Assembly: GCA_964016885.1 (NCBI GenBank)
Contig: OZ024742.1
Span: 74,958,001 to 75,022,000 of the forward strand
Length of the DNA stretch: 64,000 nt
Origin: Eledone cirrhosa
Taxonomy: Eukaryota
Direction: 5' to 3'
This document shows positions 1 to 58,947 of this stretch, piece by piece. Each line of letters starts with the position of its first letter. Position 1 is the stretch's first letter. Under the pieces are notes generated by a model that saw only the letters and a list, made by a program, of their open reading frames with translations, ran no database searches and had not been told where the DNA came from. The translations under genes were made by a program, and so were the position numbers.

Positions 1-284
1 TTCTGAATCGAAAACGTTACTTGTATATTTCTTTATAAATGTAATATAACAACGTTGCATTTATATGTTAAAGTGTATGTATCGTTCATATATCATAAGT
101 GTATGTATCGTTCATATAAATAGGTGTTTTACAACACACTTACAGTTCAAACACTTATGTAGAATTATTGTATGTAATCTTACCGCGTAATGTAGCTCAA
201 CTTTTTCCAATATATGGTATGTTGCCTTCATGTAAGCCGTAATTACACACGTCCGATTATCGGACACTGACCACAACGGTCGCC

Positions 285-286
<2 letters not shown>
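1..286 (-). mobile_element. 5' UTR end of an R4/Dong-like retrotransposon (family A) continuing off the left edge
   Basis: 1-136 aligns with 20200-20336 (5' UTR of the family A copy) and extends about 150 bp further before an (ATGT)n array. Confidence 0.75.
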
Positions 287-315
<29 letters not shown>

Positions 316-356
316 TGTATGTATGTATGTATGTATGTATGTATGTATGTATGTAT
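287..356. repeat. (ATGT)n microsatellite; further arrays near 965, 1662, 2346, 5934, 6604, 16389, 20337, 20670, 36884, 38016, 38323 and 40892
   Basis: Directly visible. Confidence 0.98.
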
Positions 357-964
357 GTCAGGTCACCAGTTGGTGCTACTGGTAACATGTATCCCAGTAC
401 AACCTGTCTCATGATCGGGTCGTTGGCGACTAAACTGGCAACCCCACCAAGGTTTCTTGATGAGGAGGGTGACTTTGGACATCCTGCAGGACTAAAATCA
501 AAACCTGTCAAAGGGCAAAGGAGCTCTTAAGTGTCAATGGCCATCCAAAATCACCGGGAGAGATGACCCCTTAGCATTTGTCAAGGCAGAATTCTAGGAG
601 AAGGAAAACTCTGATATAACACCTGCAACCTTGATGGTATCCAATGATGTTGACTTGTTCTTCTTTTTGGTAAATATCATCTTGGTTAAGAGAGTGGGAC
701 TGGCTTTGTGCAGTGCCTTTGCTCACTATAAAAGCTTCACGACACAGGCATTGCTTTATATCTGGAGATCTCGCTGCACTTGTCGTCATATAGTACCATG
801 GGCCCAGTACTATGTGTCAATAATTGTCACAAGTGTAGTGTTTGTACCAGAGTTTTCAAGTCGCTGGCTGGGCTAAAAAGTCACACTCGTTCAGCGCATC
901 GGTAGGGGTCCTCCTACATGGATATAAAGTAGTGGCCGTACTCGAAAACGAGTTGGCAGCCACC
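357..964 (+). mobile_element. Non-autonomous RTE-derived element, subfamily 1, full length
   Basis: Near-identical to 1740-2345 and 34680-35287; 822-905 encodes [27 protein letters not shown] (C2H2 typical of RTE C-termini); 3' hairpin CTCG-AAAA-CGAG followed by a microsatellite. Confidence 0.8.
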
Positions 965-1051
965 ATGTATGTATGTATGTATGTATGTATGTATGTATGT
1001 ATGTATGTATGTATGTATGTATGTATGTATTTATGTAGGTATATATGTATG

Positions 1052-1662
1052 TTCTTCCGGTTTTATAATTTCCCAAAGTTTTTCCCAATGGAGAGAGAGT
1101 AGGTTTCTAACATAGTCACAAGACTCTCTCCTTGGAATTGACACAACATCAACTAGGTAGATTATGTCTGCACGTATGCATGCATGTGTAGATATGGATG
1201 TTATTGCATGTGTGGATGTGTATGTTTTGAGTTATATGTGTGCATGTGTATATGCTTTGTATCTGTACATGTGTACATGCAGTTATTAGATGCAAAGGTT
1301 TTGGAATGTTTTACATATTTTTACTGTTCCATTAATAGATTGTACTTGTAATTTCCTAACTAGTTGTGTTCTTTCTGTTCCTGTGAAGCCTAGCTTCTCA
1401 AGATTTGTATTGAGTCAGTTACTAACATACCCCAGTGCCCCAATAATCACAGGCATAAATCTGAAGGTGTAATCAGGTGGAGTATCTGCAGATTTCTCAT
1501 TAGTTCTGTATAAATATTCTCCGTTTCGCTAATCTTAGATATTATATTGGCATCTGCTGGGCAGCTAATTTCCACTACTGTGCATGCTTTCTTCTCCCTG
1601 TCCTATATATCTGGTCTATTATGCCTGCATTTTATTGGGGTTTTTACTGGAACATTCTACCA
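1052..1662 (-). mobile_element. 5'-truncated R4/Dong-like element, family B (RLE C-terminus and 3' UTR)
   Basis: Aligns with 38336-38942; flanked on both sides by (ATGT)n. Confidence 0.85.
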
Positions 1663-1739
1663 TGTATGTATGTATGTATGTATGTATGTATGTATGTATG
1701 TATGTATGTATGTATGTATGTATGTATGTATGTATGTAT

Positions 1740-2345
1740 GTCAGGTCACCACTTGGTGCTACTGGTAACATGTATTGCAGTACAACCTATCCCATGGTCG
1801 GGTTGTTGGCGACTAAACTGGCAACCCCACCAAGGTTTCTTGGTGAGGAGGGTGACTTTGGACATCCTGCAGGACTAAAAACAAAACCTGTCAAAGGGCA
1901 AAGGAGCTCTTAAGAGTCAATGGCCATCCAAAATCACCGGGAGAGATGACCCCTTAGCATTTGTCAAGGCAGAATTCTAGGAGAAGGAAAACTCTGATAT
2001 AACACCTGCAACTCTGATGGTATCCAATGATGTTGACTTGTTCTTCTTTTTGGTAAATATCATCTTGGTTAAGAGAGTGGGACTGGCATTGTGCAGTGCC
2101 TTTGCTCACTATAAAAGCTTCACGGCACAGGCATTGCTTTATATCTGGAGATCTCTCTGCACTTGTCGTCACATGGTACCATGGGCCCAGCACTATGTGT
2201 CAATAATTGTCACAAGTGTAGTGTTTGTACCAGAGTTTTCAAGTCGCTGGCTGGACTAAAGTCACATTCGTTCAGCGCATCGGTAGGAGTTCTCCTACAT
2301 GGATATAAAGCAGTGGCCGTACTCGAAAACGAGTTGGCAGCCACC
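1740..2345 (+). mobile_element. Non-autonomous RTE-derived element, subfamily 1
   Basis: Copy of 357-964 with the same termini (GTCAGGTC...GCAGCCACC). Confidence 0.8.
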
Positions 2346-2368
2346 ATGTATGTATGTATGTATGTATG

Positions 2369-5300
2369 TTTTCTCTTTCTCTTAATTTCGAGTATATTTT
2401 TTTGACCGGCCACCTTCCTGGTGGCAAGGTTGAAAAAGAAAAAAAATTGTCATGCCTTGAATCGCAAGAATGTTTTGCAAATTTTGAAGGTGCCAGCTAT
2501 CGCAGCCATTTGCAGACTATGAATTAGGGAGCTGCGCTTTTTGTCCGCAAATCCAAGTTCAGTCATACTTTGGTCCAAGCGGGTTGGTATATAACCCGTA
2601 GCACCAATAATGATGGGTATGAAGCTAAAGGTGTATCTTGGATACTGGATTTGTAAACTCCTCATCAATGGTCCGTAGATGTCCTCCTTCTCCTGTATTT
2701 TTCTGACAACGTTTACACAAGTGGGCAGCTGATCTCCACAACAGAACACGTTTTCAATGTGTGGTCCCAAACTACAATATCAGGCCGGTTGTGCTTTAAT
2801 TTGGTGGCAGTTTTTATTTTCAGGTTCCACCAGTATTACTTAGTGCCATCTGTCTCAATATATTCTTCCTCGTTTGTTGTTAATTTTGTTTTCCGAAGTG
2901 CGTTCCAGATGGTTCTAGCTATCCCATCGTGTCTCATGGGGAGGTAGTAGCGAGATGACATTCTTTCGCAGCGGGCAACAATGTGGCTTACATCCTCGAT
3001 CTTTGTTTTACATAGCTTACATTTATTGTCAGCTGCTGGCCCTCCTCTTTTGTGCAGCAGATATTTGGTAGGGAGTTCTTGTTCCTGTAATGCATAGAGA
3101 TATCCCTCAAGGTGTGATGTCATAAACTTGTCGGAACTCCATGCCAGGCTTTTTGAGTGGTTTATCCCCTCTATGGTCTGTGATTTACGCCTCAAGTATC
3201 CATGCACAACCTTTTCTGCAAATTGGTCAATTTTCTTATCTTGTTTGAACATTGAATAGGATTTTCCGATTTCTCTGGGTGAGAGATTTATATCAGGCTT
3301 TATTCCATATCTCTCCTCCAGATCAGTCGCTATTCTAATGATATTTCTGTTTTCATGCTCATAAACCTGGGCAAGATGGTTGCCAACCTTTTTCCTCTGT
3401 TGAAGGTGTTGCTTCAGTGTTACTATCCGGGTCTCATATGTTGTTAATATTGATTTTAGACCCCGGCCACCTTCCTTGCGTGAGAAGTATAGCCTATCCA
3501 CATCACCATTGATGTTAAAGTTGCCAGTAACACTGAGAAGTTTTCGAGTTCTAACATCCATCTCACTTAGTTCTTGCAATGACCAGTTCAGTAGGCCAAA
3601 TGTTGGCGTTAGAATTGGCACAGCATAAGTATTGTGGGCAATGTATTTGTTGTATGCTGACAGTTCTGATGACCATATTTTCTTTACTCTTCTGAGGTAT
3701 TCAGTTCTGGTTCTCTCCTTATTTATGGGTCCATCATATCTGACATTCTCATCCTGTCCAAGATATATGTAGTTGTCACCTGACTGCAGAGGTTGTATTG
3801 TCAGGCCGTTAATCTCTAGATTTCTAGTGGAGGGCACAGCTCTTCCACGTTTTACTGCCATATATGCACACTTGGACTCACCAAATTTCATTTTGATGTC
3901 GGTTGAAAATTGTGTAATGAGGTCCAATTGTTTCTTGATGTCATTGATATTTGGCCCATACAACTTCAGGTCATCAACAAAGAAAAGATGGGAGATACTT
4001 CTGGGCCCACTTCTTTGTCCACCTTGTTTCCTGAGTAGGTAAGATAGTGGATTCAGTGAGAGAACGAAGAGTAGCACTGACAAGCTATCACCCTGAAAGA
4101 TGCCCTTCTGGTAATGTATCTTATCAGTCTTAACCTGCTCCTTCTCACCTCTAAGGATCAAACTGGTGTACCAGTTCTTGGTCAGGCGTTCAACAGCAGC
4201 TACCAATGGTTGTGGGACTTTAGCTAACTGTAAAGCCTTAACAATCCACCCATGAGGTACACTATCAAATGCTTTTTGATAGTCCAGCCACACGACAGTC
4301 ATGTTTCTGCGATTCTTTGTTGTTTTTTCCTGAATCATTTTGTTAGTTAGTAGGTGATCTATGCAACCCCACACCTCCCTCTTTCCACCAGCTTGCTCAG
4401 GTGTTATGATGTTGGTAGCACAGTGATCCTGTAAGAACAGGTTAAGGCACCCAGTATATAATTTATACATGATGTTTTGGCAGGCAATTGGGCGGTAATT
4501 TTTAGCAAGGGTGGTTTGGCTATTTTGGGGAATGAGGAGAGTAGTGGCAGTTGATAACCATCTGGGCAGTTCTTGTGTGCCCTTAATGGTTTCTGTAAAC
4601 AGCCGTATGAGATCTTGCCGATAGAAAGTGAAATTCTTCAACCAGTATCCTGTAATGAGGTCTGGGCCTGGCGATTTCCTATTCGACATTTTCTGTAGAG
4701 CTGTTTTCAGTATTGACCCATCTATGTCATATTGTTTTGTCTGGACATGTTGGCAGTAGTCCTGTTCCAGTTGTTTTAGCCAATTAGTTTGTCTGTTGAA
4801 TCCGTCATCCGTTTCCCATACAGATCTCCAGTAGCTCTCAACCTGTTCTTTTGAAGGGGTGTCGTTTACAGGGATTGAGCTTTTGCCACCGAAGCTGCTA
4901 TAAACTGATTTAGGATCTCTGGCAAACAATCTATTTAGCACTTGTCGTTTATGTGCTGTTGACTTATATTTTAGTCTTTCTGTTGTAGCTGTGAGTTGCT
5001 GTTTCAACTGGTGTAATTTGGAGTTCAAAGTTTTAAATTTTGTATCTCCAAATCGTCTCTCTAACTTTTTCTTTAGGTCTTCCTGGTGTCGTGTGAAGTT
5101 GCTCTCTATGATGCATTTCATAACGACTGCGATGTGTGAGATACTTCGTCTCAGGGACAAAATTTTGGTTTTTAAATTACGCATCCACGCTGGTTCAGGC
5201 TTTCCGTTTGTATCTTGATTGCGTGGTTTTAGATGTATGTTATATGATAGCAATGTGACAGCTGAAACATATAACAAAACATTAAGCGTTTCAAATGTCG

Positions 5301-5933
5301 TTTCTACACCTTTAGATCGTATAGCCTTCAGATAACTGCCAGCTATTTCGTTCACCGCTTCCAATTCCAATTTAGTGGGTTCTTTACTGATTCTGGTGTT
5401 GTATGGTCTGTCACTCACAGTAAGGCTGTGTATCTCTTGAAACATATCGTTCCATATCACTTGTAGGGTGTCCACAAGTTTTTGGTGCTCTGTTTGTTCA
5501 GTAGAGTCATGAATTTCAGACTCGTTGTTGATGTGGTGACAATTACTACTAGAGTCAGCTGACCTTTCTCGCTGTTCTTCAGTGGAAGTGGGATGGATTT
5601 CAGCAAAATTGTTGATGAGCTGTTCACTGTTAGATTTAGCTGGCCATTCTCTTTGTCTGTCAGTGGAGGTGGGGTGGTTGTCTACAAGGGCTGTATTTGT
5701 AGTATCACTCAATTCCGTTAGATGTATCAATTTACATCTAATGATACGTTTTGCCTGTTCATTTAAATGCTTTGGAGAAAAGTCTAATTCTGGGTGTTTG
5801 GAGTTCCATAAAGTTTTTAGCCTTTGCATAAAACCGAACTTTTGGGGTTCAGATTGTTTGTATGCTTCATATAATACTTTGTTAAGCTCGTAGCTCCACT
5901 GTATACAGCGGTTGTAGTTGCGATTTGGTCGAA
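2369..5933 (-). mobile_element. R4/Dong-like RLE non-LTR retrotransposon, family A copy 1 (slightly 5'-truncated, disrupted)
   Basis: RT motifs KSPGPD, YRPIAC, LDYQKAFDSV, GIFQGDSLS, FFVDD; CCHC knuckle CKLC..H..C; RHD; premature stop at 2836 and a frameshift near 2718; (ATGT)n at both ends. Confidence 0.92.
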
Positions 5934-6065
5934 TGTATGTATGTATGTATGTATGTATGTATGTATGTATGTATGTATGTATGTATGTATGTATGTATGT
6001 ATGTATGTATGTATGTATTATGTATGTATGTATGTATGTATGTATGTATGTATGTATGTATGTAT

Positions 6066-6602
6066 GTCGAGTCACTCTTGTGTGCTACCGGTATTATGTA
6101 ACCCAGTACAACCTGTCGCATGGTCGGGTCGTCGGCGACTAACCGGCCACTCCACCAAGTTTACTCCTTGGTGAGGAGGGTGATTTTGGACACCCTGCAG
6201 GACAAAAAACAAAACCTGACAAAGGGCGGAAAAACTCATAAGAGTCAACGGCCATCCAAAAGTGTGTAAATGTGTATATACACATGTACCGCACAGTTAA
6301 ACCACTGGGAATGAACGACCCCTAGCCTTTGTCAGGGCATTCTTCTAGGAGGAGGCAACTCAGGAAACTGGGATAACTCCGATATAAAACCTGCGGCTCA
6401 GTAGTTACCGATGATGTTGATATTTTCTTCATTTCAGGTTATAGCTACTGTCGCAGAGAGAGTGGGATTGGCTCAGTGCACAGCCTTCCCTCACTTTAAA
6501 AAATATCTTCACGCACAGGCATTGGACGATGGAATTAATTAATAACTATTAATAATGGTATATCATGCAATGTCCATACTCGATAACGAGAGGGCAGCCA
6601 TC
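6066..6602 (+). mobile_element. Non-autonomous RTE-derived element, subfamily 2
   Basis: 5' ~450 bp is a diverged homolog of 357-750; 3' hairpin CTCG-ATAA-CGAG and GGCAGCCATC end; ATGT flanks; no C2H2 segment. Confidence 0.75.
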
Positions 6603-6787
6603 ATGAATGTATGTATGTATATCCATATAAAGAAATTCGTTTTCAAATATAAAAACTGGAAAGGTGTAGGTGAAAACGTTATATCAGCTCAAAATACTAT
6701 AATTTATTAGAATACACACGGCTACATAAAGCATTAACAAAAAAATTATATGAATTCCTACTATGTTAGATTATTTACACGTCGATT

Positions 6788-6860
6788 CGTTGGCGTAATC
6801 TTAGGATACTCGTCCGGCAAACGAGAGGTGTGGGTTTGATCCCATGTGTGCTGATGCCCA
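6788..6860 (+). pseudogene. tRNA-like remnant or SINE head
   Basis: A-box-like TGGCGTAATCTTAGG, stem CTCGT/ACGAG with a 7-nt loop, B-box-like GGTTTGATCCC; no convincing acceptor stem. Confidence 0.35.
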
Positions 6861-6963
6861 TTTTTCCACCTCATTATTAGAGTAAATTAAAGTCAAAAAT
6901 ATTCCGGAGAAGCTTCTATTTCAATTCTAAACTTTCCTATATATATATGTTTGTTCTCCAGCC

Positions 6964-7200
6964 TTCTTCTTCTTCTTCTTCTTCTTCTTCTTCTTCTTCT
7001 TCTTCTTCTTCTTCTTCTTCTTCTTCTTCTTCTTCTTCTTCTTCTTCTTCTTCTTCTTCTTCTTCTAGGGAGGGTCATGGGGGAAGAGTCCTCAAACACT
7101 CCTTCCAGTGGGCCCTGTTAGAAGTAATTGATCCGACTGGACCCCCAAGTGAGACCAGCTGAGCTCAGGCATGTTATCCAATCATCTAGTTCGCCGTCTT
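6964..7200 (-). mobile_element. Probable RTE LINE 3' end with a (GAA)n tail
   Basis: Minus strand reads NRAHWKECLRTLPP* and then runs into a long (GAA)n array (6964-7067). Confidence 0.5.
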
Positions 7201-7746: not shown

Positions 7747-9253
7747 GAAAGCGGTGTATGATGGTAGCGTGAAGTTTGCAAAAGCCCTTGTGAAGTTCGG
7801 AATTAAAAAAAGAGATTACGTGGCTGTTTCTGTAGGTAACTGCGTAGACTTGATGATTTATAATGCTGGAGTTATCATGGCCGGAGCAATTTCAGTTAGT
7901 GTGGCAGTAAACTCACTGGACATTGGCGTTCTTATACAAGGATGCAAAGCTGTGATATTCGATTCGAAAGAAGCATTAGAAACATTGTTTAAAATTGCTC
8001 AAATTTCCGACAATAGTAAAATTGTAAGTGAAATATTCCCAGAATTGAGATTAGTTATTTCAATCTCCAACACATATTGTCCACCTAACGTTTTATCTGC
8101 TACAAAACTTATGACGGATATCAATGACAGTGAGGAAATAGCTCTACCTTATTTGGATCCGGAAGACATCGTTATTATCAGTAAAACCTCTGGTACTACT
8201 GGCCAACCAAAAGATGTCTATCACTCTCATTTTAGTTGGTTGAATTGTGCACGTGAAATGATGCATCTCTGTAACATAACCTCAGATGACGTAACATACA
8301 GCAGTCGTCCTATGTTATATATCGGTGGCTATCCATTCGGTCTGATGACGGTAGGAACCACTCATGTAACAGGAAATGTTAAACTACTAAACGACAATAA
8401 TAACCTAAAATTTATTCAAAGTATATGGGAAAAGGAACGGTGTAATATACTCTGGCTTCTTCCACAACATCTAAAATTATTCAGAAATTGTGGGTATCTC
8501 TCTAAAGTAACTATTTCTGGTGGAGATATGCTTACAAATGAATTAGTAGAGAATTCCTTATCTTTTAGTCAAACGGTAGCCGTCGTCTACGGCAGTAGTG
8601 AAGCTACATTTGTAGGTATACGGTTATTTTCAAAAGAAAACATTTCTGAACACATTCCAAAAATGATTGGTAAACCCATGCCCGATACAGAAGTAAAAAT
8701 TGTAGACGATAACGTAAAAACACTTAATATAGGAGAGGTTGGCAATATATATATTCGAAATAAATGGACAAGTAAAGGAAATGTGGCTGGTGCTTCACTA
8801 ATTAAAAATGGTTGGCAGCCAATGTCAGATATAGGTTACATGACACAAGAGGGGGATATTTTCATGATAGGAAGAGATAAGGATTTTATCAAGAAGTATA
8901 CAGTGAAACTATCTATCAAAGCAATTGAAGAATATGTCAGTTACTTTCCTGGTGTACTTTCTGTGGTCGTCGTTCCAATACCTGACGAGGAAGTTGGTGA
9001 ACGTGTGTGCGCCTGTGTTACTATTGAATCGAATCACGAATTCAATGAAGAAGGATTCAAACAGTTAAGCTTGGAAAGAATGCGAGGGGAAGACAATATT
9101 GATATCGTATCGATGATCCCGGATTATTTCTTGCAGTTTATACATTTCCCCTTATTAGCCAGTCAGAAATTTGATAGAACAACAATCAAATCATCGGCAA
9201 TTGCTCAGATCGTGCAATTGAATAAAGATAGAAAAATTACAAACATAAAGTAA
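7747..9253 (+). CDS. ANL-superfamily acyl-CoA synthetase-like (ACSF2-like) protein, large terminal exon; first exon probably upstream of the window
   Basis: TSGTTGQPK P-loop, YGSSE, SD..GR, C-terminal Lys; pyrimidine tract and TTTCAG acceptor ending at 7746, same position and phase as in the paralog. Confidence 0.9.
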
Positions 9254-15578: not shown

Positions 15579-16440
15579 GAGAGAGAGAGATGCCGATGTT
15601 TTCTTTGTACTTAATACGAATGAGCATCTCCAGCCGATATTTCAGACAAAAAAGCTTAGAAGCGCCAAACTTATACTTACCGAGTAAATGTCACCGACGA
15701 TGGATAAATATCCAGAAACACGTGTTTGACATTCTCATACGGTTGCTGAGATAGCTATTATATTATCGCACATTACAATATTCGTAGAGAGGCTCATATA
15801 TGCTTATTATACTTAAACATATGCCTTCATATACACCTTTATTATGAGCCACACTACCCATAAACAATTGTTTTATGGGAATCTTGTTCATGGAAAAGGA
15901 AACAGTGTAAGGTGAATTAAAGGAGAATTTGAAAAATGTAGCAATTGATAGAATAAACTTGGAAATCTCGCAACGGATCAATTTACTCGGCGTTCAAAAA
16001 TAGGGGATGTTGTGAAAACCTTTAGCCAAAACATAATAATAATTCAAGTAAACATTAAGAGGAAAACAGCTGATGCCTGAATGGAAATTGTCAGTGGGCA
16101 GATTTGAATGGTCATACACAAAGATGACGTCCCGAACTATCAACCAATCGGAGTACTGCGCAAACAGGATGAAAGCAGATGATAGAAGTTAGAAGGGTCG
16201 GAGTCCAGCAGTAAGAGGATTTGCTTCGAAATCACTAGACGTACCTGAGGAACTTGCGAATCCAGAGTCAAGTTCGATCCACAAACAGATCGCACCTCGA
16301 GCTGTTCGTCGGAGAAACAATTGTAATACGTAATAAATTGTATCCGATGCATCACGGATTCTTCGTTTTCCATATTATATATATATATGATGTATGTATG
16401 TATGTATGTATGTATGTATGTATGTATGTATGTATGTATG

Positions 16441-19400
16441 TTTTCTCTTTCTCTTAATTTCGAGTATATTTTTTTGACCGGCCACCTTCCTGGTGGCAAG
16501 GTTGTAAAAGAAAAGAAATTGTCATCCCTTGAATCGCAAGAATGTTTTGCATATTTTGAAGGTCCCAGCTATCGCAGCCATTTGTAGACTATGAATTAGG
16601 GAGCTGCGCTTTTTGTCCGCAAATCCAAGTTCGGTCATACTTTGGTCCAAGCGGGTTGGTATATAACGCGTAGCACCAATAATGATGGGTATGAAGCTAA
16701 AGGTGTATCTTGGATACTGGATTTGTAAGCTCCTCATCAATGGTCCGTAGATGTCCAACTTCTCCTGTATTTTTCTGACAACGTTTACATCAAGTGGGCA
16801 GCTAATCTCCACAACAGAACACGTTTGCAATGTGTGGTCCCAAACTACAATATCAGGCCGGTTGTGCTTTAATTTGGTGGCAGTTTTTATTTTCAGGTTC
16901 CACCAGTATTCCTTAGTGCCATCTGTCTCAATATATTCTTCCTCGTTTGTTGTTAATTTTGTTTTCCGAAGTGCGTTCCAGATAGTTCTAGCTATCCCAT
17001 CGTGTCTCATGGGGAGGTAGTAGCGAGATGACATTCTTTCGCAGCTGGCAACAATGTGGCTTACATCCTCGATCTTTGTTTTACATAGCCTACATTTATT
17101 GTCAGCTGCTGGCCCTCCTCTTTTGTGCAGCAGATATTTGGTAGGGAGTTCTTGTTCCTGTATTGCATAGAGATATCCCTCAAGGTGTGATGTCATAAAC
17201 TTGTCGGAACTCCATGCCAGGCTTTTTGAGTGGTTTATCCCCTCTATGGTCTGTGTTTTACGCCTCAAGTATCCATGCACAACTTTCTCTGTAAATTGGT
17301 CAATTTTTTTTCTTGTTTGAACATTGAATAGGATCTTCCGATTTCTCTGGGTGAGAGATTTATATCAGGCTTTATTCCATATCTCTCCTCCAGATCAGTC
17401 GCTATTCTAATGATATTTCTTTTTTCATGCTCATAAACCTGAGCAAGATGGTCGCCAACCTTTTTCCTCTGTTGAAGGTGTTGCTTCAGTGTTACTATCC
17501 GGGTCTCATATGTTGTTAATATTGATTTTAGACCCCGGCCACCTTCCTTGCGTGAGAAGTATAGCCTATCCACATCACCATTGATGTTAAAGTTCCCAGT
17601 AACACAGAAGTTTTCGAGTTCTAACATCCATCTCACTTAGTTCTTGCAATGACCAGTTCAGTAGGCCAAATGTTGGCGTTAGAATTGGCACAGCATAGGT
17701 ATTGTGGGCAATGTATTTGTTGTATGCTGACAGTTCTGATGACCATATTTTTTTTACTCTTCTGAGGTATTCAGTTCTGGTTCTCTCCTTATTTATGGGT
17801 CCATCATATCTGACATTCTCATCCTGTCCAAGATATCTGTAGTTGTCACCTGACTGCAGAGGTTGTATTGTCAGGCCGTTCATATCTAGATTTCTAGAGG
17901 AGGGCACAGCTCTTCCACGTTTTACTGCCAAATATGCACACTTGGACTCACCAAATTTCATTTTGATGTCGGTTGAAAATTGTGTAATGAGGTCCAATTG
18001 TTTCTTGATGTCATTGATATTTGGCCCATACAACTTCAGGTCATCAACAAAGAAAAGATGGGAGATACTTCTGGGCCCACTTCTTTGTCCACCTTGTTTC
18101 CTGAGTAGGTAAGATAGTGGATTCAGTGAGAGAACGAAGAGTAGTACTGACAAGCTATCACCCTGAAAGATGCCCTTCTGGTAATGTATCCTATCAGTCT
18201 TAACCTGCTCCTTCTCACCTCTAAGGATCAAATTGGTGTACCAGTTCTTGGTCAGGCGTTCAACAGCAGCTACTAATGGTTGTGGGACTTTAGCTAACTG
18301 TAAAGCCTTAATAATCCACCCATGAGGTACACTATCAAATGCTTTTTGATAGTCCAGCCACACGACAGTCATGTTTCTGCGATTCTCTGTTGTTTTTTCC
18401 TGAATCATTTTGTTAGTTAGTAGGTGATCTATGCAACCCCACACCTCACTCTTTCCACCAGCTTGCTCAGGTGTTATGATGTTGTTGGTAGCACAGTGAT
18501 CCTGTAAGAACAGGTTAAGGCACCCAGTATATAATTTATACATGATGTTTTGGCAGGCAATTGGGCGGTAATTTTTAGCAAGGGTGGTTTGGCTATTTTT
18601 GGGAATGAGGAGAGTAGTGGCAGTTGATAACCATCTGGGCAGTTCTTGTGTGCCCTTAATGGTTTCTGTAAACAGCCGTATGAGATCTTGCCGATAGAAA
18701 GTGAAATTCTTCAACCAGTATCCTGTAATGAGGTCTGGGCCTGGCGATTTCCTATTCGACATTTTCTGTAGAGCTGTTTCCAGTATTGACCCATCTATGT
18801 CATATTGTTTTGTCTGGACATGTTGGCAGTAGTCCTGTTCCAGTTGTTTTAGCCAATTAGCTTGTCTGTTGAATCCGTCATCCGTTTCCCATACAGATCT
18901 CCAGTAGTTCTCAACCTGTTCTTTTGAAGGGGTGTCGTTTACAGGGATTGAGCTTTTGCCACCGAAGCTGCGATAAACTGATTTAGGATCTCTGGCAAAC
19001 AATCTATTTAGCACTTGTCGTTTATGGGCTGTTGACTTATGTTTTAGTCTTTCTGTTGTAGCTGTGAGTTGTTGTTTCAACTGGTATAATTTGGAGTTCA
19101 AAGTTTTAAATTTGGTATCTCCAAATCGTCTCTCTAACTTTTTCTTTAGGTCTTCCTGGTGTCGTGTGAAGTTTCTCTCTATGTTGCATTTCATAACGAC
19201 TGCGATGTGTGAGATACTTCGTCTCAGGGACAAAATTTTGGTTTTTAAATTTCGCATCCACGCTGGTTCAGGCTTTCTGTTTGTATCTTGATTGCGTGGT
19301 TTTAGATGTGTGTTATATGATAGCAATGTGACAGCTGAAACATATAACAAAACATTGAGGGTTTCAAATGTCATTTCTACACCTTTAGATCGTATAGCCT

Positions 19401-20335
19401 TCAGATAATTGCCAGCTATTTCGTTCACCGCTTCCAATTCCAATTTAGTGGGTTCTTTACTGACTCTAGTGTTGTATGGTCTGTCACTCACATTAAGGCT
19501 GTGTATCTCTTGAAACATATCGTTCCATATCACTTGTAGGGTGCCCACAAGTTTTTTGGTGCTCTGTTTGTTCAGTAGAGTCATGAATTGCAGCCTCGTT
19601 GTTGATGTGGTGACAATTACTACTAGAGTCAGCTGACCTTTCTCGCTGTTCTTCAGTGGAAGTGGGATGGATTTCAGCAAAATTGTTGGTGAGCTGTTCA
19701 CTGTTAGATTTAGCTGGCCATTCTCTTTGTCTGTCAGTGGAGGTGGGGTGGTTGTCTACAAGGGCTGTATTTGTAGTATCACTCGATTCCGTTAGATGTA
19801 TCAATTTACATCTAATGATACGTTTTGCCTGTTCATTTAGATGCTTTGGAGAAAAGTCTAATTCTGGGTGTTTGGAGTTCCATAAAGTTTTTAGCCTTTG
19901 CATAAAACCGAACTTTTGGGGTTCAGATTGTTTGTATGCTTCATATAATTCTTTGTTAAGCTCGTAGCTCCACTGTATACAACGGTTGTAATTGCGATTT
20001 GGTCGAAGGAGACTTGTACTTTTTGCCATGATGAGTTCGTCTATTCACTAATATTTTGTATTTATTTTTTTTAAATAGTCGATGATCTTCTTTAAAAGTT
20101 ACGACAAAGTTCTGTCAGAATCAAATTTAAAGTTATTCACAGCTTGGGTAATATTTCTTTTCAGTTAGTTTTTAATTCTACAACTGTGTTTTAAACGTTG
20201 TTCTTGAATCGTTTGAATCGAGAACAAAAAGAACCGTTACTTAGTATATTCCTTTACGAATGTAATATAATATAACAACGCTGTATTTATATGTTAAAGT
20301 TTATGTATCATTCATATAAATAGGTGTTCTACAAC

Positions 20336-20336
<1 letters not shown>
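16441..20336 (-). mobile_element. R4/Dong-like RLE retrotransposon, family A copy 2, near full length with three frameshifts
   Basis: ORF pieces 20029-19493, 19701-17587, 17636-17265 and 17280-16522 give N-terminus, RT, CCHC, RHD, RPDIV..D and EISCP nuclease; highly similar to copy 1; (ATGT)n at both ends. Confidence 0.93.
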
Positions 20337-20366
<30 letters not shown>

Positions 20367-20445
20367 TGTATGTATGTATGTATGTATGTATGTATGTATG
20401 TATGTATGTATGTATGTATGTATGTATGTATGTATGTATGTATAA

Positions 20446-20669
20446 TGCACAGGCATTGCTTTATATCTGGAGATCTCTCTGCACTTGTCGTCACATGGTA
20501 CCATGGACCCAGCACTATTTGCCAATAATTGTCACAAGTGTAGTGTTTGTACCAGAGCTTTCAAGTCGCTGGCTGGACTAAAAAGTCACACTCGTTCAGC
20601 GCATCGGTAGGGGTTCTCCTACATGGATATGAAGAAGTGGCCGTACTGGAAAACGAGTTGGCAGCCACC
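20446..20669 (+). mobile_element. 5'-truncated RTE-derived element, subfamily 1
   Basis: Matches 743-964; between two (ATGT)n arrays. Confidence 0.8.
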
Positions 20670-20762
20670 ATGTATGTATGTATGTATGTATGTATGTATG
20701 TATGTATGTATGTATGTATGTATGTATGTATGTATGTATGTATGTATGTATGTATGTATGTA

Positions 20763-20809: not shown

Positions 20810-20850
20810 AAGGCATGTATTGAGTTAGAAACTCAAAATAGTCTCATTAT

Positions 20851-20923
<73 letters not shown>

Positions 20924-20940
20924 TATATATATATAGAAAT

Positions 20941-21015
<75 letters not shown>

Positions 21016-21311
21016 GAAACGAAATTTCATTTCCCACTCTTAGTATGGCTGTTACTTAAATATAAGTATGTACACGTACATACATATATGTATACAGACG
21101 TACAGTAGTATGTATATATACATACATGCACACATATATATACGTACGTATGGATTCACCGAACATTTATTATAATGCTCGGTGTGCTTGTAAACAAACA
21201 TCCCGTATCAAGCCGTAGTGTCTAGCAACCATCGTTGCTCGTTTGTTCAAACACACCGAGCATTATAATAAATGTTCGGTGAATCCATACGTACATATAT
21301 ATATGTGCATG

Positions 21312-21349
21312 TGCTGACGATAGCTAATAAGCTTGAAATTAGTACAGCG
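21312..21349 (+). ncRNA. Type I hammerhead ribozyme with a disrupted helix I 5' strand
   Basis: CTGACGA-TAGC.taataa.GCTT-GAAA-TTAG-TA-CAGCGT. Confidence 0.6.
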
Positions 21350-21466
21350 TTCCTTTGTCAGTGTTGAAGAAACGAGCAACGATGGTTGCTAGACACTACG
21401 GCTTAATACGGGATGTTTATTTACAAACACACCGAGCATTATAATAAATGTTCGGTGAATCCATAC

Positions 21467-21533
<67 letters not shown>

Positions 21534-21775
21534 CATGTATGTATATATATATACATACTACTGTACGTCTGTATACATATATATATGTACGTGTACATAC
21601 TTATATTTAAGCAACAGCCGTACTAAGAGTGGGAAATGAAATTTCGTTTCATTTTTTCCATTTATCGTTTTCGGTACACCCGGCTGATTAACCCACTCGA
21701 TATGCAAATTGGGCTACTCAGCCGTTAATATGCATAAGGTAAGTATATATGTTCAACAATCTGTCAGGAAGGTAT

Positions 21776-21818
21776 ACGTTGCTGACGATAGTTAATAAGC
21801 TTGAAACTAGTACAGCGT
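21776..21818 (+). ncRNA. Type I minimal hammerhead ribozyme
   Basis: ACGTTG-CTGACGA-helix II-GAAA-CTAG-TA-CAGCGT; GUA cleavage triplet. Confidence 0.8.
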
Positions 21819-22019
21819 TCCTTTGTCAGTGTTGAACAAACGAGCAACGATGGTTGCTAGACACTACGGCTTAATACGGGATGTTTGTTTACAAACACAC
21901 CGAGCATTATAATAAATGTTCGGTGAATCCATACGTACATATATATATGTGTGCATGTATGTATATATATATACATACTACTGTACGTCTGTATACATAT
22001 ATGTATGTACATGTACTTA

Positions 22020-22105
<86 letters not shown>

Positions 22106-22326
22106 AGTATGTATGTATGTATACGTACATACACATATGTATACAGACGTACAGTAGTATGTATATATATACATACATGCACACATATATATATATGCAC
22201 GTATCCATTTACCGTACATTTACTATAATGCTCGGGTTGTTTGTTTGTAAACAAACAAACAGCCCGAATTACGCCGTACAGTGTTTAGGCAACCACGTCA
22301 CCTTTTTGTTCAACACTGACACAGGA

Positions 22327-22370
22327 ACGATGTACTAGTTTCAAGCTTATTAGCTATCGTCAGCATCGTA
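22327..22370 (-). ncRNA. Type I minimal hammerhead ribozyme
   Basis: Minus strand ACGATG-CTGACGA-TAGCtaataaGCTT-GAAA-CTAG-TA-CATCGT with a perfect 6-bp helix I. Confidence 0.85.
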
Positions 22371-22770
22371 TACCTTCCTGCCAGATGGTTGAACGTCTGA
22401 AAGTATATACATTCCTTATGCATATTAACGGCTGAGCAGCCTAATTTGCATATCGAGTGAGTTCAGTCGGCCGGGCGCACCGAAAACGATAAATGGAATA
22501 GAATGAAACGAAATTTCATTTCTTACTCTTAATACGGCACTTACTTAAAGGTAAGTATGTATACGTACATACACATATGTATACAGACATACAGTAGTAT
22601 GTATATATATATGCATAGATGCACACATATATATATATATGTACGTATCGGTTTACCGAACATTTATTATAATGCTCGGTTTGTTTGTTTGTAAACAAAC
22701 AAACAGCCCGAATTACGCCGTACAGTATTTAGGCAACCACGTCACCTTTTTGTTCAACACTGACACAGGA

Positions 22771-22814
22771 ACGATGTACTAGTTTCAAGCGTATTAGCTA
22801 TCGTCAGCATCGTA
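22771..22814 (-). ncRNA. Type I minimal hammerhead ribozyme
   Basis: Same motif as 22327-22370, 444 bp away. Confidence 0.85.
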
Positions 22815-23189
22815 TACCTTCTTGCCAGATGGTTGAACGTCTGAAAGTATATACTTTCCTTATGCATATTAACGGCTGAGCAGCCTAATTTGCATATCGA
22901 GTGAGTTCAGTCGGCCGGGAGCACCGAAAACGATAAATGGAATAGAATGAAACGAAATTTCATTTGTCACTCTTAGTACGGCACTTACTTAAATGTAAGT
23001 ATGTATACGTACATACACATATGTATACAGACGTACAGTAAGTACATTTAAGTAAGTGCCGTACTAAGAGTGAGAAATGAAATTTCGCTTCATTCTATTC
23101 TATATATATATATATATTAATATATATATATATTTCGTTTCTGAATTTGTTTAGCAAGATTCTTTATCTGAAAACGTGTGTTGAAACCG

Positions 23190-24122
23190 ATATTGTTATG
23201 CTTTGGGAGGGTCATGTTGCCAATAAGAAACACACGCACCAGTGCTTCACTCCAATTTATTATAAATTAAATTTATAAATTTAAGAATTTATAAATTTCC
23301 GGTTGGTTGGTTGGCTTCATAACCGGATGGTTGTTCATATATTGTCAAAGTTCTTTGGTCACACATTCTGTGACCTCTTCAGTGACTGGGAATTATTTTC
23401 TTTGTTTTGTGCCTCTCCTTTGTTCTATCCTACGCCATTTCCTTTTTGTTAGTGTTGTGTGCTTAGTTTGCGCATGTGTTATATCTGGGGTATGTGAGTG
23501 TTTTTATTTGTTTATTTATTTGTTTATTTACATGTTACTGGTTGGTTGTTTGTTCTATGTGTGTGTGTTTTCATTTTGTCCTTAATTGTAAGTTGTGATG
23601 TTGCTATTCCATTTCTGTTTTCTATTTAATTTTGGTTGGAGTTCATTTATGTTTATTGCCTCTGTGATTTGTCTAAACATTGCGTCTTTTCTGTGTGTAG
23701 ATTTTATTTTTATTTCTATGTTCTCTAATTTGCCCTTATGTTCTATTTTAGCATGTTGGTGGAAACAACCAACCAGTAACATGTGAATAAAAAAATAATT
23801 AAACAAATAAAAACACACACAGACACCCGGATGTAACACATGCGCAAACTAAGCACACGACACTAACAAAAACAAGATGGCGTAGGACAGAACAAAGGAG
23901 AGGCACAAAACAAAGAAAAGAATCCCAAATCACTGAAGAGGTCACATAATGTGTGATGAAAGAACTTTGACAATATATGGACAACCGTCCGGTTATGGAA
24001 CCAACCAACCGGAAATTTATAAATTCTTAAATTTATGAATTTAATTTATAATAAATTGGAGTGAAAGCAACTGGTGCGTGTGTTTCTTATTGGCAACATG
24101 ACCCTGCCAAAGCATAACAATA
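23190..24122 (-). mobile_element. Penelope-like element 3' fragment between ~350 bp inverted pseudo-LTRs
   Basis: 23190-23550 is the reverse complement of 23765-24122; centre encodes HAKIEH..DAMFRQITEAINI..PKLNRKQKW, like PLE GIY-YIG C-termini; hammerhead-like motif at 23929-23971. Confidence 0.7.
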
Positions 24123-24153
24123 TATATATATATATGTATATCATATATATATC

Positions 24154-24374
<221 letters not shown>

Positions 24375-24454
24375 AAGGCACGTATTGAGTTAGAAACTCA
24401 AAATAGTCTCATCATATCATATATATATATATCATATATATATATATCATATAT

Positions 24455-29905: not shown

Positions 29906-29927
<22 letters not shown>

Positions 29928-29931
<4 letters not shown>

Positions 29932-30640
29932 TAAAGTTAGTCCTTCATCAGTGATCTTCCAACCATCATTGGTATTTCATCGCTTTAAAGACCATATACC
30001 TCCGGTGTGTGCGAGCAACGGCTAAAAAAAGTCGTTGGGACACGTAAATAAAAGGGAACACGAGTGTAAACAAACAAAATGGTGAAGCAACGAAAAGTGA
30101 GGAAGAAGGAGTCAAGTCCCAAATTTCTATGAATTTAAATTCGGTGAAATCGTGAACGAGAGAGAATAAAGACCATCAAACCTGGTTGGAATGTAAGCAA
30201 GGAAGGAATTCCGTACAGGTCTAACGGGAGGAAGAAGGGATCTAGTCTGTGATTTCGGTGAACGTAAGTTCTGTGAAATCGTAGACGAGAGAGAGAAAAA
30301 AAGCGACCTGCCAGACCAAGGGTGCGAAAGAAAAGAATTACGCACAGGTCAAACGGGAAGAAGGAGGAGGAGGAGGAGGAGAGGTAGTAACAGATAATGA
30401 GTGAGTGAAGGGTGAGGAAGAGGCTAACAGAGAGAGAGTGACTGCTAGAGAGGGTAAAGATACAAAGAAAGAGGAAGCAGTAAGAACGAAATAGACAGCG
30501 GGAAAAAAAAATGTGTAAATATGAGATAAACGGTGGAAATCGATTAGATATATTGCCAATCTATACACAATTAGGTACAAAATCAAAGTTAGAAGAAACA
30601 ATGTATATAAGCATACCAAAATTATGTCTCTACCCCATGA
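29928..30640. repeat. Unclassified GA-rich repeat family; related copies at 33495-34000, 34085-34600 and 35460-35780
   Basis: Shared TCCTTCATCAGTGAT..CCATATACCTCC..GCGAGCAA start; always next to (TA)n. Confidence 0.7.
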
Positions 30641-34016: not shown

Positions 34017-34086
<70 letters not shown>

Positions 34087-34599
34087 ATAAAATATAGAGA
34101 AAAATACTGCAGGTAGCACATGGATAACATGTAATAAAATGAGTCACTCATCAGTGATTTGCCGACGATCATAGATATTTCATTGCATTAAAAATCATAT
34201 ACCTCACGTCGGTGCAATAATAACCAAAATAAGTTATTAGGACAATTGAAACGCGTAAAGCGAGTGAGACAGGAGAACAACAAAGAGTATATCTAACCGT
34301 AGGGGAAAGAAACAAGCTTCAAAATGATTCTGTTTAGCATAAGCTAGGTGAATATATGAGCGCTTTAGAAAAAAGACCTGACACGAACGATGGCCATGTG
34401 AGAAGAGAGAAAAATAGCCTTCGTGGTGTACAGGATGAAATGAAGAGAGGAGAAACAGTGAGTGAGTGAAAGTGTGAGGAAGAGTTAACTGACATGACAT
34501 AGGGGGCGAAAGAAGGTAGGAGAAACAGAGAGAATGGGGGAGCAGTAAGAGAGAGAGAGAAAAAAACACAGAATCGCAGTTTGGGTAAATATATGTAAT

Positions 34600-34679
<80 letters not shown>

Positions 34680-35285
34680 GTCAGGTCACCAGTTGGTGCT
34701 ACTGGTAACATGTATCCCAGTACAACCTGTCTCATGGTCGGGTCGTTGGCGACTAAACTGGCAACCCCACCAAGGTTTCTTGGTGAGGAGGGTGACTTTG
34801 GACATCCTGCAGGACTAAAAACAAAACCTGTCAAAGGGCAAAGGAGCTCGTAAGAGTCAATGGCCATCCAAAATCACCGGGAGAGATGACCTCTTAGCCT
34901 TTGTCAAGGCAGAATTCTAGGAGAAGAAAAACTCTGATATAACACCTGCAACCCTGATGGTATCCAATGATGTTGACTTGTTCTTCTTTTTGGTAAATAT
35001 CATCTTGGTTAAGAGAGTGGGACTGGCTTTGTGCAGTGCCTTTGCTCACTATAAAAGCTTCACGGCACAGGCATTGCTTTATATCTGGAGATCTCCCTGC
35101 ACTTGTCATCACATGGTACCATGGGCCCAGCACTATGTGTCAATAATTGTCAGAAGTGTAGTGTTTGTACCAGAGTTTTCAAGTCGCTGGCTGGACTAAA
35201 AAGTCACACTCGTTCAGCGCATCGGTAGGGGTTCTCCAACATGGATATAAAGTAGTGGCCGTACTCGAAAACGAGTTGGCAGCCA

Positions 35286-35287
<2 letters not shown>
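34680..35287 (+). mobile_element. Non-autonomous RTE-derived element, subfamily 1, full length, inside (TA)n
   Basis: Near-identical to 357-964. Confidence 0.8.
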
Positions 35288-35353: not shown

Positions 35354-35781
35354 ATATTATTCAAAATGTTAATAAATGAAAAATATTCTCATAATAAAAA
35401 AACATATATTTTATTATACATATTTCAAATATATATATATATACATATACATTTATGATAATAAGGGCGCTGCGGAGTTGCAAATGGGTTACATATGAAA
35501 AAAGTTTGTCCTTCATCAGTGATCTTCCAACTATCATAGGCAATTCATCGCATTAAAGACCATATACCTCCGGTTGGTGCGAGCAACGGCTAAAAAAAGT
35601 CGTTGGGACACGTAAATAAAGGGGACGCGAGGGTAAAACAAACAAAATGGTGAGGCAACAGAAAGTGAGGAAGAAGGAGACAAGTCCCAGATTTCTATGA
35701 ATTTAAGTTCGGTGAAATCGTGAACGAGAGAATAAAGACCATCAAACCTGCTTTAAATGTGAGCAAGGAAGGAATACACCC

Positions 35782-37980: not shown

Positions 37981-38084
37981 ACTACTATAGTAAATAATCT
38001 TCTTCCGAGAGGAAGATGTATGTATGTATGTATGTATGTATGTATGTATGTATGTATGTATGTATGTATGTATGTATGTATGTA

Positions 38085-38162
<78 letters not shown>

Positions 38163-38174
38163 TGTGTGTGTTAT

Positions 38175-38232
38175 GTCAGGTCGCTGTCGAGTGCTACTGG
38201 TAACATGTAACCCAGTACAACCTGTCTATGGT
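38175..38232 (+). mobile_element. 5' fragment of the RTE-derived element
   Basis: GTCAGGTC..GTGCTACTGGTAACATGTAACCCAGTACAACCTGTC. Confidence 0.65.
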
Positions 38233-38335
38233 CGTGAACGTGACCCAACGGGCGGTCTAGTAGTAAATAATCTTCCAAGAGGAGATAAGTTACTTGGTTA
38301 ACACTCATAAAAGGAAAAGTAAGTATGTATGTATA

Positions 38336-40891
38336 TTCTTCTGGTTTTATAATTTCACAAAGTTTTACCAATAGAGAGAGATTCGGTTTCTAACATAGAC
38401 ACAAGACTCTCTCATTGGAATTTACACATCAACTAGGTAGATATGTATATATGCATGCATGTGTAGATATGGATGTTATTGTATGTGTGGATGTGCATGT
38501 TTTGAGTTGTATGTGTGCATGTGTATATGCTTTGCATCTGTACATGTGTATATGCAGTTATTAGATGCAAAATTTTTGGAATGTTTTACATATTTTTAAT
38601 ATTCCATTAATGGATTGCACTTGTAATTTCCTAACTAGTTGTGTTCTTTCTCTTCCTGTGAAGCCTAGCTTCTCAAGATTTGTATTGAGGCAGTTACTAA
38701 CATATCCCAGTGCCCCAATAATCACAGGCATAAATCTGAAGGTATAGTCAGGGTGGAGTATCTGCAGATTTCTCATCAGTTCTGCATAAATATTCTCCTT
38801 TTCACTAATCTTTGATATTATATTGGCATCTGCTTGGGCAGCTAATTTCCACTACCGTGCATGCTTTCTTCTCCCTGTCCCATATCATATCTGGTCTGTT
38901 ATGCCTGCATTTTATTGGGATTTTTACTGGAACATTCAACCAGTACTCTTTCATATTATGTACATGGATGTCTTCCACATTGCTGTAGCTTTTAATGTGT
39001 TTATTATCGGGGCTACCTTTTTTTACGAACTGAATGGTACAGTATTTTGGCCACTACATCATGCCTCATAGGTAGATAGTACCGCGATGACATCTTTGGA
39101 CAGCTGCTGATGACATGGGTGATATCCTCGATGTTAGTTCTGCAGAGTCTGCACTTGTTATCACATCTAGGTGTTTTGCCTGCATCCCTATCTCTTTTGT
39201 GAATCAGGTATTTCGTTTTAATCTCCTGTTCCTGGATTGCAAAAGCATATCCTTCAAAGTGGGAGCCAATATAGTGGTTGTTGGTCCAAGATAGACTACT
39301 TTTCTTATCTATATTACTCTCACTATGGAGCTTCCTGGCAATATATCCATGCATGATTTTTTGCTGATAGGCATGCAGTTTTTCATCCATGGAATCACTG
39401 CGATACTGCTGAGCGTCATCCCTGGGTGTGAGTTTTTGATTATCACACGGGGAATATCTCTCGAGAAGTTCCTTCCCAACTCTCATGATCTTATCTGTTT
39501 CATGCAGATAGACTTGCTCGAGAAACGGGCTCCTACGCTTCGAAGTTCGTAGATGTTGTCGGAGAGATATGATGCGACATTCAAATGTTGTCTGGACTGA
39601 TGTTAGGCCTCTGCCTCCCTGCTTACGTTTCAAGTAAAGGCGGTCTATGTCACTGTTGGTGTGGATGTTTCCGGTGTTGTTCAGTATTTTTCGAGTACCA
39701 AATTCAACTGCTCGGATTTCGTCTATCGTCCAATTGAGTATTCCAAACGTTGGTGTTAGGATAGGCACAGCAAACACATTGTGAGCCACTGTTTTGTTTT
39801 GCGCAGTGAGTTCCGATGATCAGATCTACGCGTTCTTTATTACAGATATCTTTGTTGGTGAGGAGTGAGGTTTTTTTCTGTTTGTTTTCATGTAAGGAGC
39901 ATTGTCACATATCCTATATTTTTTCGTAGGTCAGCAATCTTTTTTTCTATTTTAGTTATATATGATGGTATTTTTGGTGGTGTTCTGTTCTTGTTAATAT
40001 CTCTGCTATCACCAAGATAATGCTTCACTGTCGTTGCTAGGGCATATAAACAGGCGTTGATTTGCCAAAATGTTGGGGTTTTTATCCGTCGTAAATATTC
40101 ATCCCCTATTTCACCAATAACACGTAATATTTCATTATTTGTTTTTTTATTAAACATTGTCGTTTTAACACGTTCAGCAAGAGAGATATTTATACATGAG
40201 TTAATTTCTCTCTGGAAGATTTCGTTGAGGGAAATTTTCAATTGTTTATACTTTTGATTATCATTATCGATAGTATTTTCCACAACAGTCGAGGTAGACT
40301 CGGATGGTACACGTGGTGTCAAATTTCTTCGATTATTATTATTATCGATAGTGTTTTCCCCAGCATTCGAGGTAAACTTAGATGGTACACGTGGTGTCAA
40401 GTTTCTTACAGGCATAGTTGTTTCAAGACGCTGTGCGACCTGGCTGCTAAGATGTCTAGTAGCATGGCGACCTGTAGCACGTGTTGTTGATAACATGTTT
40501 ATTGTGGGGGATTGTTTTTTGCCATTTTATAACAATTAAATAAATCATTATTAAGTTCGCAACCCCAAGAGAAATGCGATTTATAATTTCGGTTTCTTCT
40601 GTAGCTACGACTGAATAAAGTTTGATTACCTTCCTTGTTATTTGTCTTCGGTACTTCCTTAATATATTTGTTGATGTTGTGTTCAACCATGCTCCTTGTA
40701 AAATGAATTATGTATTTAGTCGGATATCTCTACGAATTCGAATCAAAGGTGTCTTCAGAAGGTATAGTTAGGAGAATAACCAGTTATTCAACCTGACTGT
40801 AGTTGTGGCATTACTCTCGGAGATAGTATTCATCTTAAATTTAATAAATAGTCTCCCACGCCAAAATATGCGACTGATCACGTTGACTGTC
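38336..40891 (-). mobile_element. R4/Dong-like family B element, both ends present, RT deleted
   Basis: N-terminus RNRNY..W..ELN..L..CY homologous to family A; junction near 39825 jumps to AHNVFAVPILTPTFG; CCHC, RHD and RLE present; ATGT flanks. Confidence 0.85.
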
Positions 40892-41481
40892 TATGTATGT
40901 ATGTATCTATGTATGTATGTATGCATGTATGAGTGTTTGTATGAATGAATGAATGAATGAAATTATAACCCAAATCTGTTCAAATCTGCTAATTTATCGT
41001 CGCTGCAATAAAATTTAAAACCGAGTTATTTCCCCAAATTAGATAAACTGCAATCCCTTACATGCAATTGAAGAGTTATCTGAAAAGTTCATAGGCTGAC
41101 TAAGATACTCTCATGGAATGACGAAATGAGGTTTATTTTTCAACATACTCCCTGGGAAGAAACAATGCAGTTATTAATAAAGAGTTAAAATCAATGCATG
41201 CAAGGTTTCATAGCCTTCAATCCTTCATAGTCAGCATATGGACCTTTCAGCCGATCCTCATATTTTACCCAAATTACGTAAATTGCAACCAAGAGAGATC
41301 TGCGATGATATTCGTATGATTTTTGTTTTTATATTATTTGTAGTTGTGTTTTTAATGTTATTGATTTTGAACATTAGCCCCAGTCAGCAATGCTAATCGA
41401 AAAATCATACTAATCGAAAAATCATGATACGCTCATCCAGTTTTTTCTCTATATTACATACAGAATGGACTCGTTAATAAT

Positions 41482-58926: not shown

Positions 58927-58947
58927 ATTATAAGTTACTTGATCAAA

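Follow-up and report, generated by a model that had tools for sequence, protein, structure and literature searches.

We report a chain of six retrotransposon copies in the genome of the octopod Eledone cirrhosa (assembly GCA_964016885.1), located in a stretch of 64,000 nucleotides on contig OZ024742.1 (positions 74,958,001 to 75,022,000 of the forward strand), which is referred to here as the window. The chain is a stack of copies within a single ATGT repeat in intron 1 of an acyl-CoA synthetase gene, most probably built up by separate insertions, each of which would split an array into two usable ones. It contains R4-A and R4-B, two families with R4/Dong-like features, and short elements that appear to derive from RTE retrotransposons, named S (copies S1 and S2) and S3. 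Positions refer to the window, negative ones lying upstream of it. Other loci retrieved from the assembly carry the prefix L.

Between the six copies there are only ATGT repeat units and a few odd bases, the spacer arrays within the chain being 24-135 bp long. Examination of the upstream DNA showed that the chain extends beyond the left edge of the window and totals 10,588 bp. An earlier, sequence-only reading of the window had described the elements, orientations and spacers correctly; the first element is now additionally recognized as the tip of a full-length R4-A (Table 1). The sequence of this tip at 120-286 matches 40 places in the genome at 100%. The R4-A copy at 2370 has an open stretch of 1029 codons with the domains RVT_1 and zf-RVT, its frame being broken before the endonuclease part. 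S1 is made up of an RTE-like part of a 5' untranslated region (UTR), a zinc-finger remnant from the end of an open reading frame (ORF) and a 3' hairpin; the ATGT in front of it probably forms part of the element's own start. The idea that the R4-B piece is a fixed 609-bp element was rejected, as other copies run on past that point. The R4-A 5' UTR carries a diverged tandem duplication (12-102 and -145 to -50; L031), with 83% identity over 97 bp and the two parts about 157 bp apart; the R4-A copy at 16.4-20.3 kb is truncated inside this duplication.

The chain had been placed within intron 1 of the acyl-CoA synthetase gene, and the gene structure bears this out. The two coding exons have the same Octopus vulgaris protein as best match (69% for exon 1 and 63% for exon 2) and join via GT..AG into a single open frame across an intron of 11,826 bp, of which the chain occupies 10,588 bases (90%). 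The best named relatives of the window proteins are from Argonauta and Octopus. A second acyl-CoA synthetase paralog at 44453-48340 shares this two-exon layout, with a 2.25-kb intron at the corresponding place.

R4-A was assigned by its domain architecture. The Pfam scan gave RVT_1 and zf-RVT, and neither R4-A nor P0001 had an apurinic/apyrimidinic endonuclease domain (APE; Exo_endo_phos) or an N-terminal finger in these scans. The motifs C-x2-C..H..C and RPDIVVWD..VEISCP..K, aligned with relatives, are taken by us to be a CCHC finger and a PD..(D/E)xK restriction-like endonuclease, respectively. Members of the Dong/R4 clade have no APE domain and, unlike R2 or NeSL, no N-terminal zinc finger or Myb domain. 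The closest relative of R4-A had R2 proteins as its only significant matches among solved structures, and no named R4 or Dong reference was present among 60 protein matches. R4-B is about 50% identical to R4-A in protein. We therefore label both families Dong/R4-like from this architecture and from reports on octopus genomes: Dong-R4 elements are described as abundant and recently active in Octopus vulgaris, with 5 families and 1,129 insertions, in an excerpt of PMC13282606, and as abundant and active in octopus in an excerpt of PMC8967140. A 5' self-cleaving ribozyme resembling that of hepatitis delta virus is given as a feature of the clade in part of PMC3774820. The Rfam scan of 1-7000 returned no ribozyme family among 9 matches, only repeat-driven microRNA and small nucleolar RNA noise, although diverged ribozymes may escape such a scan. 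Exact 3'-end matches in the genome numbered 2,059 for R4-A and 5,698 for R4-B.

The repeat is shared by all of these families, as the sequence-only reading had proposed, and each keeps a fixed polarity to the repeat strand. R4-A and R4-B carry (ACAT)n at both ends on their own sense strand, and the S elements face the opposite way. The S 3' end has 29,568 exact matches in the 3.0-Gb assembly; it was followed by ATGTATGT in 9,680 cases, by ATACATAC in 9 and by ATATATAT in 9,135. The polarity of S is thus over 1000:1, and all 36 neighbours of sampled arrays lay in the expected direction. Since 9,135 S ends precede ATATATAT, the niche of S is not ATGT alone, (AT)n being used about equally. Other full-length R4-A copies ran into an ATGT-type repeat at the 5' end in 29 of 29 cases. 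Of the 29 R4-A loci with the highest scores, 9 were excluded because the copy continued beyond the locus and 4 because of internal deletions; all 16 of the remaining 5'-truncation junctions ran into the ATGT repeat. For R4-B, 14 of 29 loci stopped at a deletion in the reference, and 14 of the remaining 15 junctions entered ATGT within about 30 bases. As both flanks, including those of 5'-truncated copies, consist of the repeat, it is the target and not only a tail. At loci picked by position, R4-B was followed by ACATACAT in 24/30 copies, R4-A showed the exact phase in 21/30 with most others near variants, and S was followed by ATAT (18/30) or ATGT (12/30), that is, by one of the two in 30/30 as judged from the first four bases. 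Read literally, these junctions would mean that the R4 enzyme nicks the ATGT strand and the RTE enzyme the complementary one, both at a single shared TpA step.

An ORF is absent from S1, S2 and S3. Among the retrieved loci, tblastn identified a full-length element, named RTE-P (L163/L164/L314), that has APE, reverse transcriptase (RT) and C2H2 fingers; we take it to be a probable RTE from its architecture and motifs. S3 matches RTE-P in 268 bp of the 5' UTR (89%) and in the last 41 bp (90%), the match of S1 being weaker (69%, 86% and 83% over 229, 35 and 30 bp). This sharing fits bipartite RTE derivatives, in which a 5' UTR part and the 3' end remain and the ORF is deleted. RTE-P itself lies between ATGT arrays in the S orientation at L164, L301 and L314. 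The Rfam scan of 1-7000 gave no match to tRNA, 5S or 7SL RNA for the S head of about 200 bp. S3 is a composite: its RTE-P-like second half occurs alone too, and in other S3 copies the join is longer by about 90-110 bases, which the window copy lacks (both L043, L083, L299 and L323). An inverted 5' segment resembling twin priming was seen in S copies at L098, L204/L205 and L317, and at L020, L024, L182 and L218 the S 5' end is repeated in short, abortive form a few bases upstream of the element, which suggests template jumps at the 5' junction. The proposal that S adds an ATGT tail was rejected, its 3' flanks tracking the local context (ATAT in AT tracts, ATGT in ATGT tracts).

To describe the growth of chains, elements were counted at 82 loci in the first 29 Mb of contig C1. 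A geometric distribution is expected if each insertion makes one array into two usable ones and a Poisson distribution if each locus has a fixed rate. There were 30 loci with no element, 18 with one, 17 with two, 6 with three, 2 with four, 4 with five, 3 with six, and one each with seven and eleven, so that 5 of the 82 held six or more; by extrapolation there are probably several hundred such chains in the genome. Over four sampling settings the log-likelihood was -141 to -143 for the geometric and -161 to -171 for the Poisson distribution (-137 and -148 to -155 with the longest chain dropped), and the negative-binomial shape was 0.6-1.1. A single polarity was kept in 32 of 34 multi-element chains. 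S1 and S2 are 95.9% identical, as against a median of 95.5% to other copies; because chain-mates are thus at background identity, separate insertions are indicated.

Occupancy of arrays was estimated at loci picked by position, to which the co-occurrence figures refer. An S 3' end was within 1 kb of 25 of 55 arrays, where 0.55 would be expected under a uniform genome, and 24 of the 25 were on the same strand. At 39 distinct arrays, 36 of the 78 ends abutted an element (15 left, 21 right); 8 arrays were occupied on both sides and 11 on neither, as q-squared predicts for independent ends (odds ratio 0.97, Fisher p=1.0). A neighbour at the far side was present at 29/57 R4-anchored arrays (51%; three duplicated loci were dropped from 60) versus 15/39 picked by position (38%; p=0.30). 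Median tract lengths were alike at occupied and free arrays (91-103 bp). S copies clustered in ATGT arrays, where 17/99 gaps between them were of 1.5 kb or less, but not in AT arrays (2/99), AT runs being about six times commoner than ATGT runs (334 versus 57 in 400 kb, from 80 regions with one satellite region left out). The ATGT target is crowded, with nearly half of it saturated. The suggestion of co-clustering beyond chance holds against a uniform genome, but there is no clear excess when the shared target is the baseline. The notion of a special landing pad was not supported, the two ends of an array being independent and R4-anchored arrays showing no clear surplus of neighbours; by the standards of this genome the locus is ordinary. 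An 8-kb satellite (approximate length) with a unit of about 31-35 bp around ATGT runs (L358, contig C1 11,252,400-11,262,399) is not colonised.

That each insertion leaves target for the next, as had been supposed, agrees with the geometric chain lengths; that it also adds target is upheld only in part. Target-site duplications of S that include flank repeat were informative in 16/106 copies, versus 0-6 in 20 shuffles, and ATGT was present at the 5' junction of 53 of 63 full-length S copies. In one S copy (L019) the target-site duplication is 145 bp long and takes in unique DNA. Perfect runs were longer 5' than 3' for R4-A (medians 15.5 versus 5 units; 28/44 copies with both flanks; p=0.006) and for R4-B (14.5 versus 4 units; 26/60 copies; p=0.03), and one R4-A copy (L240) is bordered by a single ATGT in the 3' direction and by seven in the 5' direction. 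An enzyme requiring a longer target upstream than downstream, as R2 does, would produce a like asymmetry.

We propose that each insertion splits an array into two that may both remain usable. R4 enzymes would nick the ATGT strand, and an RTE enzyme would nick the strand that reads ACAT or ATAT; the TpA step cut is apparently the same for both. The opposite polarities would then be fixed by target-primed reverse transcription. S and S3 would borrow an RTE protein, RTE-P being a candidate donor for S3 and a relative for S1. Slippage and target-site duplication may restore the length of the array, and insertion into a repeat within an intron would be tolerated.

Several points weigh against this account. 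The search for an autonomous RTE closely related to S1 was negative, RTE-P reaching 69% and 83-86%, and a protein search for such a partner with the ORF-end peptide of S1 gave one candidate, with none scored. The phase of the junctions is ambiguous because repeat bases may form part of the element ends, which could shift the nick position. Unequal insertion rates among loci also yield a geometric tail, and the sample of 39 arrays alone cannot separate geometric from Poisson. The automated count divided L170 too finely and came out too low for L322 and L323, and the baseline loci all lie within the first 29 Mb of a single contig, where arrays are scarcer than average. No empty allele was found and no R4 or S copy nested in the body of a known host element; only a SINE-like element (resembling short interspersed nuclear elements) of about 185 bp was found nested. 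Heterogeneity among loci, whereby long, accessible or weakly selected arrays gather many insertions and splitting adds little, is a possible though not a favoured explanation, and one compatible with serial insertion. The negative-binomial shape of 0.63 at one setting, the bunching of long chains at C1 18.8-20.9 Mb and the non-significant excess at R4-anchored arrays (51% against 38%) all point towards it, whereas the independence of left and right occupancy (odds ratio 0.97) and the similar tract medians of occupied and free arrays do not; R4-A moreover often lies at a distance of 4-6 units from the end of an S copy, so that short remnants of arrays are used again.

A more far-reaching form, in which the elements make their shared target, appears rather unlikely. 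RTE-derived copies would seed ATGT into AT tracts and duplicate the flanks, R4 would write (ACAT)n at its 5' side, two unrelated endonuclease classes would cut opposite strands at the same TpA, and retrotransposons rather than slippage would be the source of most ATGT arrays. That the repeats are instead 3' tails made by the elements, as in lepidopteran RTEs, the chain growing by insertion into tails and not into a pre-existing microsatellite, is improbable. RTEs end in and generate simple repeats according to excerpts of PMC2887409 and PMC6007223, and the 53 of 63 S copies with ATGT at the 5' end include copies in AT tracts. However, the repeat is also on the 5' side of 5'-truncated copies, the S 3' flank follows its surroundings, so that no fixed tail is copied, and 11 of 39 arrays are free of elements on both sides. 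Duplicated sub-chains do occur elsewhere (L253/L254, L295-L298), but an origin of the present chain by local tandem duplication or by co-mobilisation as a composite unit is very improbable, given three different families with differing 5' truncations, no repeating unit and chain-mates at background identity. A misassembly joining unrelated copies at microsatellites is equally hard to credit. None of the available records spans the chain, and the pieces on it from public contig sets (three, from one sample) and restriction-site-associated DNA sequencing of other samples are all shorter than 330 bp. The window has no N, the sequences on either side of the chain are parts of a single gene whose splice sites are intact, the spacers are only 24-135 bp, and many other loci show chains of 5-7 elements and the same strict polarity. 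Serial insertion into one intronic repeat remains the preferred account.

The shorter chain at 16.4-20.8 kb and the looser one at 38.0-40.9 kb that had been described are both present. The S 3' piece of the former is 222 bp long, and the latter consists of a 58-bp S-type head, about 100 other bases and an internally deleted R4-B. Because the full-length S copy beginning at 34682 sits in (AT)n, S is not confined to ATGT. A SINE-like repeat of about 185 bp has many copies in the window (37354-37538, 45699-45886, 46543-46743, 50672-50861, 56368-56555, 58748-58931 and 59895-60075) and is elsewhere nested in R4-B and S3 with duplications of about 17-20 bp. Other short repeats between (AT)n, including a 444-bp tandem pair, are located at 20848-24454, 29922-30209, 33475-34678 and 35490-35775 and are possibly further AT-array families. 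A different, broken APE-RT element at 24454-27121 (minus strand) contains an internal 33-bp tandem repeat, carries a short 6-bp repeat at the 3' end and is without ATGT association.

Table 1. Features of the chain, its host gene and related elements (negative positions lie upstream of the window)
Feature	Position	Strand	Remarks
Acyl-CoA synthetase, coding exon 1	-4225..-4080		Located with N-termini of octopus acyl-CoA synthetases
(ATGT)10	-3969..-3930		Precedes first R4-A, outside window
R4-A long interspersed nuclear element (LINE), 5' tip (5' UTR)	1..286	-	Full-length 4.2-kb copy reaching -3929; stops/frameshifts
(ATGT)18 array	287..358		
S1, 606-bp non-autonomous, probably RTE-derived	359..964	+	
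ATGT array	965..1052		16 perfect units, then imperfect
R4-B, 609-bp 3' piece	1053..1661	-	5'-truncated; second R4/Dong-like family
(ATGT)20 array	1662..1741		
S2, second full-length S copy	1742..2345	+	95.9% identity to S1
(ATGT)6 array	2346..2369		
R4-A	2370..5932	-	5'-truncated at ORF start
ATGT array	5933..6067		21+12 units
S3, probably RTE-derived, subfamily 2	6068..6602	+	S-type head, 83% to S1
(ATGT)3	6607..6618		Chain end
Acyl-CoA synthetase, coding exon 2	7747..9253	+	
Second chain	16390..20761		(ATGT)13, R4-A 16442-20337 (-), (ATGT)26, S 3' piece 20448-20669 (+), (ATGT)23
Full-length S copy	34682..35287	+	(AT)n on both flanks; overlooked in the sequence-only reading
Looser chain	38016..40920		(ATGT)19/(GT)n, S-type head fragment 38177-38234 (+), R4-B 38337-40892 (-), short ATGT runs

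The system is a variant of known target-specific retrotransposition. What it contributes is ACAT as a four-base target of R4/Dong-like enzymes and, for RTE-derived elements, a preference for microsatellites that is strongly strand-biased. It offers a measurable case of target exhaustion, about half of the ATGT array ends abutting an element, and the locus is one of probably hundreds. With one intron composed to 90% of such a stack and the corresponding intron of the paralog at 2.25 kb, it bears on the growth of introns and genomes in octopods, and also on the use of ATGT microsatellites as markers. Young R4-A copies represent a natural site-specific, RNA-templated integrase for study. The literature searched contained no description of Dong-like elements that target ACAT, of mixed chains or of such a strand bias in RTE-derived elements; the search did not extend to Kojima and Fujiwara 2004 or Fell et al. 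2025, to the supplements of these papers, or to Repbase and Dfam.

Among known systems, Dong (R4 clade; Bombyx Dong, DongAg and snail DongBg) is alike in its single ORF, in its RT with C-terminal zinc finger and restriction-like endonuclease, and in the microsatellite at both ends. Its target is given as TAA in an excerpt of PMC3812793, whereas here it is ACAT, used by two families about 50% identical in protein. The same excerpt gives ACAY microsatellites, which include ACAT, as the target of Waldo (R1 clade; WaldoAg1/2, WaldoFs1), and names Kibi, Koshi and Mino as other microsatellite-targeting LINEs; Waldo is APE-type and R4-A is without APE, so the target is convergent in another clade. 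Togen and some HERO elements also target microsatellites (PMC4640811, in excerpt), and a screen of 4,464 assemblies by Fell et al. 2025 is cited in part of PMC13586686. The bipartite non-autonomous RTEs (Bov-A, RTESINE1/2, RTE-N; Kojima 2018, PMC5786205, in excerpt) likewise join a part of an RTE 5' UTR to a 3' end without an ORF; the S elements differ in their strong confinement to AT/ATGT microsatellites, a polarity of over 1000:1, about 30,000 copies and the composite S3. The RTE insertion signature of Nishiyama and Ohshima 2018 (PMC6007223, in excerpt), in which the first bases of the target match the 3' repeat of the element, is similar but loose and near a T stretch, whereas here insertions lay inside repeat arrays in 30/30 copies picked by position. 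Finally, in double-insertion tandems (McGurk and Barbash 2018, R1 arrays; PMC5932611, in excerpt) a surviving preferred site is likewise reused, and several Utopia families share U2 genes (PMC4640811, same excerpt); the present system differs from both in that it mixes clades of opposite polarity, targets a dispersed microsatellite and probably includes hundreds of long chains.

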